Source of the DNA: Mobula hypostoma
Taxonomy: Eukaryota
Length of the DNA stretch: 64,000 nt
Reading direction: 5' to 3'
Assembly (NCBI RefSeq): GCF_963921235.1
Contig: NC_086097.1
Span: 104,286,001 to 104,350,000 of the forward strand
Below are positions 27,749-36,749 of this stretch, in pieces. The translations under genes were made by a program, and so were the position numbers. Under the pieces are notes generated by a model that was given only the letters and a program-made list of their open reading frames with translations, was not told the origin of the DNA and searched no databases. Each line of letters begins with the position of its first letter. Within the stretch, counting starts at the first letter, position 1.

Positions 27749-27878
27749 CTGACTAAAATAAAAGATTGAATGTATTCAAGTAATTCAACGGGCGGCTAGA
27801 CTGGGTACATAAGATGACAGGTGATTGGTAAAACATTATAGTTCTTTTGGAAAAACTTGTTTTCCTTTTTTCCCTCAG

Positions 27879-28019
27879 GACCTAATTGTTGATCAAACTA
27901 TAGAGAAGGTATCCTTCTGTGCTCCTGATCGAAACTTTGACAAGGCATTCTCATACATTTGTCGAGATGGTACAACCAGGCGTTGGATCTGTCATTGCTT
28001 CTTGGCGATACGAGATTCG
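27879..28019 (+). CDS. NUMB: NUMB-family coding exon, PTB domain (141 nt, phase 0/0)
   Basis: Polypyrimidine tract and CAG acceptor at 27876-27878; encodes [53 protein letters not shown] donor at 28020. NUMBL is not fully excluded. Confidence 0.93.
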
Positions 28020-31000
28020 GTAATTAAACTCTTTTCTCTTCTTTTATAACAAGGCGGCATCTATTGTTATGGTGGGAGTAAGGTGGGAAGTGCTCTGAGA
28101 TTGTTAGAGGAAGCATAAAGTTCTTTAGATTAGATTAGATTCAACTTTATTGTCATTGTGCCAAGTACAGATAAAAAGCCAATGAAATGCAGTTAGCATC
28201 TGACCAGAAGTGCAAAGAATAGTGAGAGTTTGAAAGTAAGATTTAGCTGTATTTCAGATTCTATTGTTATTGCAGGGGATATAAGCAAGGGTGGGGGCAC
28301 TTCACTTGAGGTAATGAAGGAAGATTAGGATTGCAGTTGATTTTTCTTGAATTATATTTGTGGTAGAATACTGATTTGCCTTGCTCCATGTAAGTTATCT
28401 GTTCTCCACCAACATCGTGGAAGTTGAATGGTTCTGTTGAACTTGTGTCTTTTTGAATTGAAAAATCATCCCATTCCATTTACATTTAAGTAATTGTTAT
28501 TTCTCTTGGTCTTTTCCTCATCAAGCTTCTGACTCATTCCACAGTACAAGGTCATTTGATCACAGGTTTTATTCCTAGTCTGTGCTGGGTCACAGCAACA
28601 ATGACAATTAGCCAAATCTCTCAGCCCTGCTTAGAGTAGAAAGTGTGCCTGTGTAACAGGACTGCCATCCTAACAAAATGGAAAAACTTTCAAACACTTG
28701 CAGCTACTCATTTGCTGTGTCCATTTGCAGTCGCCCGACCTTGTGCAGTGTTGTGTCGCATTTAACTCCAAAACAATGTGTTACTTGGAAAAGCAGATTC
28801 TTGGTATTGACCTGTAGCTGTGTAGTTTTTTTAATTTAAAAAACCAAATTTCAGAAATTAACTATTAAAATACGAAGTGAAATGCTTTGTATTTGTTCAA
28901 GACCTCTGGTTGTTTCCCTTGAACAACAATGTATCGATCTGAGCTGCAATCTTCAATTAAGAAACAATAAACTGTGCGGTCCAGGAGACCTTAGTTTGAA
29001 AAATGATGCATCATTTTTTTTTGTTACTCTGATGCAATTTTGCAATATTTGCTACCTCACACCACCTATATTCTCATTCGTTATATATAAACAGTACCGG
29101 TACCAATTCCTACAATACCATAAGGCCAAGAAGAGTTAGGATATTCACCCCATCAAATTTGCTATGCCATTTAATCATGGCTGATTTATTATCTCTCTCA
29201 ATGCTACCTCCATCCTACTCCCTATAACTTTTGACACTCTTACTAATCAGAACCTATCAACCTCCATTTTAAGTATACTCAATGACTTGCTCTCCACAGC
29301 CGTCTGTGGTAATGAATTCCACAGATTCACGACCCTCTGGTTAAAGAAATTCCTCCTCATGTCTGATCTAAAACGACATCCTTCTATTCTGAATCTGTGC
29401 CCTGTGGTCCTTGACTCTCCCACATCCTCACCATGTCTATTCTGTTTTGGCCTTCAAAATTTAATAGATTGCAATGAGATTTCACTCCCCCACCCCACCC
29501 CGATTCTTCTAAACTCCAGCAAGTGCAGGCCCAGAGCCGTCAAACTCCATGCAATACCTGCCTCTCCACCTATCTTTGTATGGTCTGAAAACTTGGCCAC
29601 AAAGCTTTCAATTTTGTCATCCAAATCATTAACATATAATGTGAAAAGGAGCAATCCCAACATTGACCCCTGCAGAACACCACTAGTCACCGTTAGCCAA
29701 CCAGAAAGAGTGGGTCTCCTTTATACCCACTCTTTTCCTCCTGTCAGTCAACCACTCTTCTATCCTTGCTGTTACCTTTCTTGTAGTACCATGGGCTCTT
29801 ATCTTAGCAGACTCATGTGCGGCATCTTGTCAAAAGGCTTCTGAAAATCCAAGCAAACAAAATCCACTGACTCTCCTTTGTCTATCCTGCCTGTTATTTC
29901 CTCAAAAAGTTCCATCAGGTTTGTCAGGCAAGATTTCTACTAAAGGAAACCATGCTGACTTTGGCCTATTTTATCATGTACCCTGAAGGATCATCCTTAA
30001 TAATGGACACCAAAATCTTCCCAGCCACTGAAGCAAGGCTAATTAGCCTGCAATTTCCTGTCTTTTGCCATTCTCCCTTCATAAAGAGTGGGCATTTGCA
30101 ATTTTTCAGTCCTCAAGAACCATTCCAGAATATCTAGTGATTCTTGAAAGATCACTACTAATGCTGCCTCCACGATCTCTTCAGTCACCTCCTTCAGAAC
30201 GCTGGCCAAGGGTGGGGTGGGGTGGGGAGGGTTGTGTAGTCCATTTGGTGCAGGTGACTTACCTCCCTTCGACCTTTCAGCTTCCTAAGCACCTTCTCCT
30301 TAGTGATAGCAACTGTATTCACACCTGCCCCCTGATGTTCTCAAATTTCTGGCATTCTGCTAGTGTCTTCCTCAGTAAAGACTGACGCAAAATAATTATT
30401 GAGCTCATCTGCCATTTCTTTGACCCCCATTACAACCTCTCCAGCATCAGTTTCCCACAATCCGAAATCCACTATTGCTTCTTTTACTCTTCATATATCT
30501 GAAAAACCTTCCGGTATCCTTTATATATGATTGGTTAGCTCATCTTCATATTTCATCCTTATCCTAATGCTTTTTTAGTTGCCTCCTTTTGGTTTTTAAA
30601 TACCTCCTAATCCCTAGCTTCCCACTAATTTTGGCAATATTGTATGCTCTCTATTTTGCTTTTATGCTGCACTTGACTTCCCTTGTCATCCATGGGTGTT
30701 TCATCCTCCAGTTAGTATACTTCTTCTTTCGGATATGTCTACCCTGCACCTTCCGAACTGCTCCCTGAAACTCCAGCCATTGCTGTTCTGTCATCTCTGC
30801 CAATGTCTCCTTTCAGTCAACTTTGGCCAGTTCCTTTCCCATGCCTCTGTAATTCCCTTTATTTCACTGTAATACGGATACATCCAGTATTAACTTTACT
30901 TCCGCAAACTGCAGGGTGAATTGTATCATATTATGATCACTGGTTCTCAACAATTCCTTTACCTTAAGCTCTGTAATCAAATATGGTTCATTATAAAATA

Positions 31001-31241
31001 CTCAATTCAGAATTGTCTTTTCCCTAGTGGGCTCAAGAACAAGCTACTTGAAAAACCACTTTGTAGCAATCTACAAATTCCTCCTCTTGCAATCCAGCAT
31101 CAACATAATTTTTCCAATCTAGCTGCATATTGAAATCCTCCACGACCATCATAACATTGCTGTGTTTGTGTACTTTTTCTACCTCGCACTGTAATTTGTT
31201 GCCCACATCCTGGCTGTATTTGGAAGCCTATATATAACTCC

Positions 31242-31722
31242 GTGGTCGAGTGGTCGGCGACTCGGGCCGGCTCCCCCACAGGACTTAGTCTGGTGAGGAG
31301 GGTGTGAGGACACCCAGCAGGACTAAAAAAAAAACAAGACCTGACAAAGGGCGGATGAGTTCCTTGTGAGCCAATGGCCATCTTTCGTGGAAGAGATTAA
31401 AGCCTCACCACGTATCTACGAATTGTATGCTATGCACCTAGTTAGAAGAGACATGATGAACTTGGGCGCTGCACCGTGTGCCTGGACCTGCCCGAGGCCT
31501 CCGCCTAAAGAAGGGCCGAGCTCGAAGAAGCGGCCGTGGCTGGAGGCTGACACAGTCTGGGACTCGAGTTCAAGTTCGTCGGGGGCAGCAGCGGGCGGTG
31601 CCAAGGCGGCCAGCGAGAACAAACTGGAGGAGAGGCTGTACTTGGTGCAGTCGCAAGATCGAAGAAGATGGAGGTGCATAGCTGCCAACCCCAGATTCGG
31701 GAGGGCACCCACTGACTGACTG
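31242..31722 (+). mobile_element. Non-autonomous RTE-derived retroelement carrying a captured gene fragment
   Basis: 10-bp TSD ATATAACTCC (31232-31241 and 31723-31732); (ACTG)3 tail; RTE-like C-terminus QDRRRWRCIAANPRFGRAP; GC-rich head; internal CYHR1-like segment. Confidence 0.85.
31468..31651 (+). pseudogene. ZFTRAF1: Circularly permuted fragment of CYHR1/ZFTRAF1 coding sequence
   Basis: 31470-31502 encodes [11 protein letters not shown]; 31504-31650 encodes [25 protein letters not shown]. Joining 31651 to 31468 gives [22 protein letters not shown], against recalled CYHR1 [22 protein letters not shown]. Confidence 0.8.
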
Positions 31723-31919
31723 ATATAACTCCCATCAGGGTCTTTTCACCCTTGCAGTTTCTTAACATACCATTGACTCTGGATTCATTCTCACTGCAGT
31801 AGCTGTATACTAATAGACAAAAAAAGATAAAATCGTACCAGAAACTTACCTAGAGCCTTTGCCTCTTCTCACCTGAGCTTCTTGGGTCGAAATCTCCAAC
31901 ACTGCCCACTCCATTTACA

Positions 31920-34900
31920 TGCAAACATGAGTAAATCTGCAGATGCTGGAATTTAAAGCAACACACATAAAAAATGCTGATGAACGCAGCAGGCCAGGCA
32001 GCATCTATAGGAAGAGGTACAGTCGACGTTTTGGGCCGAGACCTCTCGTCAGGACTAACTGAAAGAAGAGATAGTAAGAGATTTGAGAGGGGGAGGGGAG
32101 ATCTGAAATGATAGGAGAAGACAGGAGGGGGAGGGATGGAGCCAAGAGCTGGAAAGTTGATGGGCAAAAGGGATACGAGGCTGGAGAAGGGAGAGGATCA
32201 TGGGACAGGAGGCCTAGGGAGAAAGAAAGGGGGAGGGGGGAAGCCCAGAGGATGGGCAAGGGGTATAGTGAGAGGGACAGAGGGAGAAAAAGGAGAGAGA
32301 GAGAGGGAGGGAGAGGGAGAGGGATATATATATATAAAAATAAATAACGGTTGGGGTACGAAGGGGAGGTGGTGCATTAACAGAAGTTAGAGAAGTCAGT
32401 GTTCATGCCATCAGGTTGGAGGCTACCCAGACAGAATATAAAGTGGTGTTCCTCCAACCTGAGTGTGACTTCATCTTGAGAGTAGAGGAGGCCGTGGATA
32501 GACATATCGGAATGGGAATGGGACATGGAATTAAAATGTGTGGCCACTGGGAGATCCTGCTTATTCTGGCGGACAGAGCGTAGGGGTTCAGCGAAATGGT
32601 CTCCCAGCCTGCATCAGGTCTCACCAATATATAGAAGGCCACATCGGGAGCACCGGACGCAGTATATCACCCCAGCTGACTCACAGGTGAAGTGTCGGCT
32701 CAACTGGAAGGACTGTCTGGGGCCCTGAATGGTGGTGAGGGAGGAAGTGTAAGGGCTTGTGTAGCACTTGTTCTGCTTACAAGGATAAGTGCTGGGACGG
32801 AGATCGGTAGGAAGGTATGGGGAGGACGAACGGACAAGGGAGTCACATAGGGAGCAATCTCTGCAAAAAGCAGAAGGGGGGAGGGAAAGATGTGCTTAGT
32901 GGTGGGATCCTGTTGGAGGTGGCAGAGGTTACGGAGAATTATATGTTGGACCCAGAGGCTGGTGGGGTGGTAGGTGAGGACATGGGGAACCCTATTCCTA
33001 ATGGGGTGGCGGGAGTATAGGGTGAGAACAGATGTGCGTGAAAAGGGAGAAATGTATTTGAGAGCAGAGTTGATGGTGGAGGAAGGGAAGCCCCTTTCTT
33101 TAAAAAAAAAGGGGGACATCTCCTTCGTCCTGGAATGAAAAGCCTCATCCTGAGAGCAGATGCGGCAGAGACAGAGGAATTGCGAGAAGGGGATGGCATT
33201 TTTGCAAGTGACGGGGTGGGAAGAGGAATAGTCCAGGTAGCTGTGAGAGTCCGTAGTCTTATAGTAGACATCAGTTGATAAGCTGTCTCCAGAGATAGAG
33301 ACAGAAAGATCTAGAAAGGGGAGGGAGGTGTTGGAAATGGACCAGATAAACTTGAGGGCAGGGTGAAAGTTGGAGACAAAGTTAATGAAGTCAACGAGCT
33401 CAGCGTGCGTGCAGGAAGCAGCACCAATGCAGTCGTTGATGTAGCGAAGGAGAACTGGGGGGACAGATGTCGATATAGGCTTGGAACATGGATTGTTCCA
33501 CAAAGCCAACAAAAAGGCAGGCATAGCTGGGACCCATACGGGTGCCCATGGCTACACCTTTAGTTTGGAGGAAGTGGGAGGAGCCAAAGGAGAAATTATT
33601 AAGAGTAAGGACTAATTCCGCTAGATAGAGGAGAGCGGTGGTAGAGGGGAACTGATTAGGTCTGGAATCCAAAAAGAAGCGGAGAGCTTTGAAACCTTCC
33701 TGATGGGGGGGCGGGGGGGGGTGGAAGTATATAGGGACTGGACATCCATGGTGAAAATAAAGCGGTGGGGGCCAGGGAACATAAAATCATGGAAAAAATT
33801 TAGAGCATGAGAAGTGTCACGATCGTAGTTAGCAAGGGATTGAACAAGGGGGGGATAAAACAGTGTCGAGGTATGCAGAAATGAGTTCGGTGGGGCAGAA
33901 GCAAGCTGAGACAATGGGTCTACCTGGACAGGCAGTTTTGTGGATCTTGGGTAGGAGGTAGAAATGTGAAGTGTGGGGTGTGGGAACTGTAAGGCTGGTA
34001 GCAGTGGATGGGAGATCCCCTGAGCTGATAAAGTTAGTGATGGTGTGGGAGACAATGGCCTGGTGCTCCTTAGTGGGGTCATGATCAAGGGGTAAATAAG
34101 AGGAGGTATCCGCGAGTTGTCGCTGTGGTTTGGCAAGGTAGAGGCCAGTACGCCAGACTACAACAGCACCTCCCGCCCCCCCCGCCCTTAACGGCGGGTT
34201 TTATAGTAAAGTCAGGATTAGTGCAGAGGGAGTGGAGAGCAGAGCGTTCGGAAGGAGTGAGGTTGGAATGGGAAAAAAGGGTGCGGTGAAGTTGAGATGG
34301 TTGATGTCCCATCGGCAGTTAGCAATAAAGAGATCCAGAGCAGGCAGAAGACCAGAACAGGGTGTCCATGAAGAGGAGGAGGGTAGAAGAGAGGAGAAGG
34401 GGTCACTGGTGGGGGTGAGAGAGTCCTTGCTGAAGAAGTAGGCTCGAAGACGGAGCCGGCGGAAGAACATAGAATAGTACAGCACAGTACAGGCCCTTCG
34501 GCCCACAATGATGTGCTGACCCTCAAACCCTGCCTCCCATATAACCCCCCACCTTAAATTCCTCCATAATATACCTGTCTAGTAGTCTCTTAAACTCCAC
34601 TTTCTGCCTCCACCACTGACTCAGGCAGTGCATTCCATGCACCAACCACTCTCTGAGTAAAAATCTTCCTCTAATATCCCCCTTGAACTTCCCACCCCTT
34701 ACCTTAAAGCCATGTCCTCTTGTATTGAGCAGTGGTGCCCTGGGGAAGAGGCGCTGGCTATCCACTCTATCTATTCCTCTTATTATCTTGTACACCTCTA
34801 TCATGTCTCCTCTCATCCTGCTCCTCTCCAAAGAGTAAAGCCCTAGCTCCCTTAATCTCTGATCATAGAGTTCAGCATCATGGCGAATGTGGAACTCGCT

Positions 34901-36544: not shown

Positions 36545-36749
36545 GGTGAGCGATTAAGTCATGCTGTGGGCTGTGCTTTTGCAGCGTGTTTGGAAAGGAA
36601 GCAGAAACGTGAGAAGGAATGTAATGTTACTGCCACTTTCGATGCCAATCGAACCACCTTCACCAGGGAAGGTTCCTTCCGAGTAATCTCAGCCACTGAG
36701 CAAGCAGAGTGTGAAGAAATTATGAGACAGATACAGGACACCAAGAAAG
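36545..36749 (+). CDS. NUMB: NUMB-family coding exon, PTB C-terminal helix and following region (205 nt, phase 0/1)
   Basis: TTTCGCAG acceptor; encodes [74 protein letters not shown] donor at 36750; in frame with the 27879-28019 exon. Confidence 0.94.

Follow-up and report, generated by a model that had tools for sequence, protein, structure and literature searches.

A host exon carried by an amplifying retroelement is known from the SVA elements with a MAST2 exon. Gene capture has also been described for maize Bs1 and for LTR-mediated retrocopies (reviewed in PMC5408686), which, like the element analysed here, hold a host exon as the fixed cargo of an amplifying retroelement; as presented in the part of that review that concerns them, these gene-capturing elements are LTR- or L1-driven and have colinear cargo, unlike the permuted cargo here. 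The bipartite non-autonomous RTE elements Bov-A, RTE-N2_Lch, RTESINE2 and WALLSI3 (Kojima, 2018; PMC5786205) share much of the anatomy of the present element, namely the 5′ end of an RTE LINE joined to a short 3′ end of that same LINE with the middle lost, a microsatellite tail and no head derived from a small RNA. Unlike it, none of those in the part of that account considered here carries a host coding exon between its ends or an insert that is permuted, and none has a head formed by an edited inverted repeat.

Two further groups of sequences are comparable in how they may have arisen. Pseudogenes derived from circular RNAs (circRNAs) include 33 mouse copies of circRFWD2 (Dong, 2016; PMC4897178), which resemble the element here in being non-colinear host exonic sequence, present in many copies and tied to retroelements. 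In the excerpted account they have exact exon 6–exon 2 back-splice joints and LTR-rich flanks and number in the tens, whereas here the joint lies inside one exon, 4 nt off the splice donor, and is fixed in a non-LTR family of probably about 900 copies. Chimeras made by LINE reverse transcriptases (RTs) include tripartite forms that arise by double template jumps (Gogvadze, 2007; PMC2104539) and LINE-1/mRNA chimeras, which preferentially involve first exons that precede long introns (PMC13174262). These too consist of different RNAs joined by a LINE RT and are flanked by target-site duplications (TSDs), but in the sections of the two papers that treat them they are mostly one-off and colinear, whereas the chimera here became a master and is permuted.

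The window, the whole stretch of DNA that was analysed, is 64 kb of contig NC_086097.1 of Mobula hypostoma, a genome of 3.48 Gb. It contains at positions 31242–31722 an insert of 481 bp (58% GC), and the features needed to follow the analysis are as follows.

27876–27995, plus strand: NUMB-family PTB exon upstream of the insertion (PF00640, E = 5e-10).
29250–31770, minus strand: older degenerate endonuclease–RT LINE split by the insertion; ends approximate.
31232–31241, plus strand: left TSD, 10 bp; present once in relatives of the flank that lack the insert.
31242–31467, plus strand: 5′ part of the parent LINE (5′ UTR and ORF start; ATG at 31432, MHLVRRDM), lacking 7 and 10 nt that the LINE has.
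31242–31269, plus strand: remnant of the 3′ arm of the apparently edited hairpin, from the LINE 5′ UTR; last 28 nt kept in the truncated window copy.
31432–31719, plus strand: predicted chimeric open frame that opens at the LINE start codon, reads block A in the host frame and closes at the LINE stop; 95 residues here, 93 in the family majority.
31468–31507, plus strand: block B, placed first, a 40-nt segment of the 3′ end of ZFTRAF1 exon 1; ends 4 nt before the splice donor.
31508–31651, plus strand: block A, the 138 nt preceding block B in the host exon, placed second; 144 nt here.
31652–31722, plus strand: 3′ end of the parent LINE, matching the LINE tail; ~60 terminal nt (QDRRRWRCIAANPRFGTAPTD, stop) followed by the (ACTG)n tail (31711–31722).
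31723–31732, plus strand: right TSD, a perfect match to the left copy.

The flanking 10-bp repeat has no other occurrence in the window, and the 3′ terminus of the insert is an (ACTG)3 tail. Deleting the insert restores the reading KTLMGV|IYR on the minus strand of the flanking LINE, and among 14 relatives of the flanking repeat there are 11 in which only 0–9 nt separate the left flank from the right and the 10-bp repeat is present once. These observations bear out the proposal of the preliminary description that the insert moved as one unit. It had also called the split element a CR1; the RT homology of the flank stands (tblastn E = 3e-4), but the CR1 label comes from short sequence motifs and Pfam gave 0 matches in four flanking LINE fragments, and we take the element to be CR1-like on those motifs. 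The insert sits in the sense orientation within an intron of a NUMB-family gene, as judged from the PTB exon and from a NumbF domain 7 kb beyond the end of the window; the next exon presumably starts at 36545, where it was placed by sequence motifs. The NUMB intron named earlier therefore holds at the level of the family, with NUMB itself and its paralogue taken together. Adjoining the insertion, at 31920–34400, is a strongly purine-skewed repeat that is probably another LINE copy.

When genomic loci were picked by the tail of the insert, 26 of the 30 held the element and four held a plain LINE, and walking upstream led to three copies of ~3.39 kb with endonuclease-like and RT frames. The RT frame matches RVT_1 (E = 3e-28), and the 5′ coding region of this LINE is present at 37 loci. 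Its anatomy (3.4 kb, short UTRs, a repeat tail and, in intact homologues, a single ORF of ~1000 residues with endonuclease and RT) fits an RTE-type element, a label taken from anatomy and from DUF6451 neighbours rather than from an RT tree. The 3′ end and tail of the element match the LINE at 89–100% in 30 of 30 LINE loci. The head of the element is the LINE 5′ end, from which stretches of 98, 7 and 10 nt have been deleted; outside the hairpin described below the two differ by three substitutions in about 190 aligned nt. LINE copies L108–L110 contain both ends, in agreement with the earlier suggestion that both come from one autonomous RTE-type LINE. The details of that suggestion fared less well. 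The piece YAMHLVRRD had been read as an H-x-x-RR part of an ORF C-terminus, but it is the N-terminus of the LINE ORF, since the intact homologues begin with MH at the position of MHLVRRDM. Because the head is thus the LINE 5′ end and ORF start, the replacement extends over about 2.9 kb of LINE and is not confined to the C-terminal region. The cargo was considered as normal LINE coding sequence and rejected, as beyond each joint the LINE continues differently; the internal segment is accordingly no ordinary part of an RTE ORF. A head derived from a tRNA or ribozyme was likewise rejected (no tRNA in seven loci; no Rfam match, ribozymes included, in four), and what had been termed SINE-like is in the strict sense a bipartite non-autonomous LINE whose head comes from the LINE 5′ UTR.

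The 5′ ends of the parent LINE (L141–L165) share sequence from about GACC(A/G)GAGAGATTC onward, and the leaders before it fall into at least two groups (L150/L157/L162 and L141/L147/L161), suggesting 5′ switching. At three of 25 LINE loci (L150, L159 and L149) an inverted LINE tail lies 1.0–1.5 kb upstream of the 5′ coding region, and these are possibly 5′-inverted insertions.

The middle of the insert was assigned in the preliminary description to CYHR1/ZFTRAF1, and this is confirmed: with a 47-residue piece of the cargo, the only matches among 380 protein candidates were four shark and ray ZFTRAF1/CYHR1 proteins (best E = 8e-8), and the genome's own gene matches at the DNA level. That gene lies on contig C5, has a first intron of about 91 kb and is the only ZFTRAF1 gene among 102 scored matches. 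The family majority cargo consists of host positions 1784–1823 followed by 1646–1783, identical at 175 of 178 positions; the two host blocks stand in different frames and in reversed order, which had gone unstated before. The earlier figure of ~184 nt captured applies to the window copy only, which has a private 6-nt insertion in block A; the family cargo is 178 nt. No base is lost or doubled at the opening point between host positions 1783 and 1784, and the swapped cargo corresponds to a 178-nt circle cut at a single bond and read once round, an exact circular permutation. In having host exon sequence in non-colinear order the element agrees with circRNA-derived retrocopies. When 30 copies were selected by a motif of the head, which lies outside the cargo, block B came before block A in 29, and the thirtieth broke off inside block B. 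The cargo lies on the sense strand exactly between the two breakpoints of the LINE, its joints with the LINE are blunt (0–1 shared bases), and no cargo-free form was found in a sample of 60 loci, 30 picked by the head and 30 by the tail.

In full-length copies of the element, the first ~55 nt repeat the LINE 5′ UTR, in its already deleted form, in inverted orientation, which gives a hairpin of ~55 bp (folding z = −7.2; none of 200 shuffles as good). Compared with the LINE majority, 15 of the 23 A's of the hairpin are changed to G on the sense strand of both arms (12 of 18 in the loop and 3′ arm, three of five in the 5′ arm), and three of the A's that stayed unchanged are in the loop. Among the 84 A's of the remaining head and the cargo, none is changed (Fisher p = 6.5e-13). 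The T's opposite the changed sites are kept in the 5′ arm, which indicates that A is the ancestral state within the element. At the non-CpG changed sites G is nearly fixed in those of 76 sampled copies that reach them, in a tally that leaves out one site. Because the change is of the same strand on both arms, it points to editing of an RNA duplex followed by reverse transcription, and clustered sense-strand A>G changes confined to a long duplex are the pattern expected of hyper-editing. ADAR would have hyper-edited the master transcript and the RT would have fixed the edits, an interpretation that this pattern makes likely. Since the head holds what appear to be fixed RNA-editing changes, the element was likely built at the RNA level; strictly, editing places the master in RNA and does not show that the capture took place there. 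In the first ~130 nt of copies L002, L011, L012, L022 and L027 the A>G changes create runs of G and GGGCGG boxes, which are candidate promoter sites.

The element forms a family. Nearly the whole insert is covered at 90–92% by each of the 40 matches scored among 2466 genome candidates (one of the 40 is the window copy), a cargo 21-mer that differs from the host gene occurs exactly 491 times in the genome and a head 19-mer 375 times, with no occurrence of the controls for either. The 21-mer is present exactly in 17 of the 30 head-picked copies, which scales to ~870 copies, and the cargo alone as query gave 922 candidates; the family has at least 491 copies and likely about 870–920 (~900). The multi-copy non-autonomous family proposed in the preliminary description is thus real, and a one-off chimera was rejected on these hundreds of copies. 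The full-length element is ~580 bp, 5′ truncation varies between copies, and the window copy has lost about 100 nt of the head. TSDs of at least 7 nt were found at 14 of 30 and 12 of 30 loci, compared with four of 150 mismatched controls; the two sets of 30 have three loci in common, and the head-picked loci are the first of the 375 listed, all on contig C1. Dispersed copies with TSDs and 5′ truncation are what target-primed reverse transcription produces. Divergence of 29 copies from the family majority is 5.7%, or 2.9% at non-CpG sites, from which the burst of amplification was not very recent, and the earlier wording that the element now spreads is not borne out.

Some variation within the family was noted. 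Loci L119 and L139 have an identical 13-nt shortening at the circle joint, which may mark a small subfamily or a recurrent deletion, and two further variants are common to 23 of 73 and 31 of 76 copies. At G000:C2:81088216-81088745 two cargo motifs lie 500 bp apart in opposite orientation, as head-to-head copies or an inverted copy. Among 24 listed sequencing runs, 11 (five organisms) contain 0.21–0.52 of the words of the element, a measure of words only and not of the permuted cargo itself; no RNA run with element words was among those listed. Neither the element nor an ADAR-edited master retroposon was found described in the top-ranked literature outside subscription journals, a search that for the element also stood apart from Dfam, Repbase and journal supplements (Kojima's could list a similar element).

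The preliminary description had attributed the capture to template switching from host mRNA. Capture of host sequence by an RT is indeed likely, but a simple switch onto linear mRNA would give a colinear piece, and the exact permutation indicates instead that the template was circular or looped. We therefore favour, with a probability of roughly 0.65, the reading that the RT of the parent LINE jumped onto circular or looped exon-1 RNA for one turn, the product having likely been copied since by the protein of that LINE. The RT would have begun on the LINE 3′ end, switched after ~70 nt to the exon RNA, made a single circuit of it, halted at its own entry point (at a nick or on collision with its own cDNA) and then jumped from the exon RNA to the LINE 5′ end. 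With jumps from LINE tail to exon RNA to LINE head, the loss of 2.9 kb and the capture would be one event, and the family would since have been mobilized in trans by the parent LINE. A weaker step is the source of the RNA end or joint at the exon-1 splice donor, which could be a back-splice circle trimmed by one deletion of 2–26 nt or a free end of exon 1. Four nucleotides of exon separate the circle joint from the donor downstream, so an exact donor-to-acceptor back-splice joint is absent; block A begins next to an AG, and a donor-to-acceptor circle using this adjacent AG yields the observed joint after one deletion of 2 nt. That AG is, however, a weak, purine-rich acceptor, and the most pyrimidine-rich AG of the 28 listed needs a deletion of 26 nt. 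A pyrimidine-rich CAG preceded by branch-point-like sequence lies 22 nt upstream of the start of block A. Against a clean back-splice, all 15 of the upstream AGs tested fit equally, a blunt join fits without deletion, and first exons rarely circularize. Of the sampled circle joints, 43 of 44 have one length, and a genome-wide pattern search for copies with a longer joint gave one match, in unrelated DNA. Of the weight given to the circular-or-looped reading, perhaps the larger share goes to a true back-splice circle, the rest falling to loop-back on linear exon-1 RNA. Positions 1600–1623 of host exon 1 (locus L064), in the first coding exon of ZFTRAF1, hold a branch-point-like CTAAC and a pyrimidine tract before a CAG, a possible cryptic acceptor.

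In the main rival reading, the exact permutation would also follow, with no deletion at the joint, if an extrachromosomal DNA circle of 178 bp, derived from the CpG island of ZFTRAF1, had been opened once and used to fill a double-strand break in a LINE copy or a pre-existing bipartite one, which then became the master. Small DNA circles are typically of about this size, the source of the cargo does lie in a CpG island (GC 0.65–0.71), which counts against an RNA circle, and the blunt joints fit end-joining. Such an origin leaves unexplained why one end falls 4 nt from the donor (a chance of about 1% by a rough count of possible ends) and why the capture coincides with both LINE breakpoints, and no cargo-free parent is among the 60 sampled loci; we consider it unlikely, if still of appreciable weight. 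The end close to the donor is the main, though modest, discriminator between RNA and DNA circles. No circle at all is needed if some allele, or a paralogue since lost, had this part of the exon in tandem duplicate (A-B-A-B) and B-A was copied from it by ordinary colinear switching, the common route in the relevant part of PMC13174262. This requires entry and exit on adjacent bases by chance, and with no duplication at the host locus and a single ZFTRAF1 gene among the scored matches it is very improbable. Returning to the favoured jump of a LINE RT onto exon-1 RNA, its fullest form, a non-LTR family founded on a first-exon circRNA and an ADAR-rewritten hairpin head and amplified about 900-fold, is put forward tentatively and is rather more likely to fail than to hold.

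The cargo is most likely a neutral passenger. It might have been kept as useful, either through the 93-residue chimeric frame or through RNA from the ~900 exon copies acting on ZFTRAF1 mRNA. No stop interrupts the frame between the LINE's own start and stop codons, and block A is read in it as in the host gene (by our estimate a coincidence of about one in ten), and the synonymous share of changes is 0.30 against 0.26 expected (p = 0.03, crude model), so that any selection on the predicted frame appears marginal. The excess is small, decay of the copies is close to neutral, with 317 replacements among 454 non-CpG changes, and no annotated chimeric protein was among the 380 candidates; a useful cargo is on balance quite unlikely. 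Pfam gave no match in the chimeric frame.

The element is a vertebrate non-LTR retroelement with a host coding exon as fixed cargo, spread hundreds of times. Because the topology of the cargo records a circular intermediate, it offers a natural case for testing LINE RTs on RNA circles. Its head is apparently a genomic fossil of ADAR hyper-editing inherited family-wide, a route for RNA editing into heritable sequence, and, if the circRNA origin is true, the family would preserve a circRNA as well as a hyper-editing event as fossils in the germline. Such events may also account for GC-rich heads and bodies of SINEs whose origin is unknown. In the genome of M. hypostoma itself, annotation and read mapping will be confounded by the presence of some 900 nearly identical ZFTRAF1 exon-1 copies.
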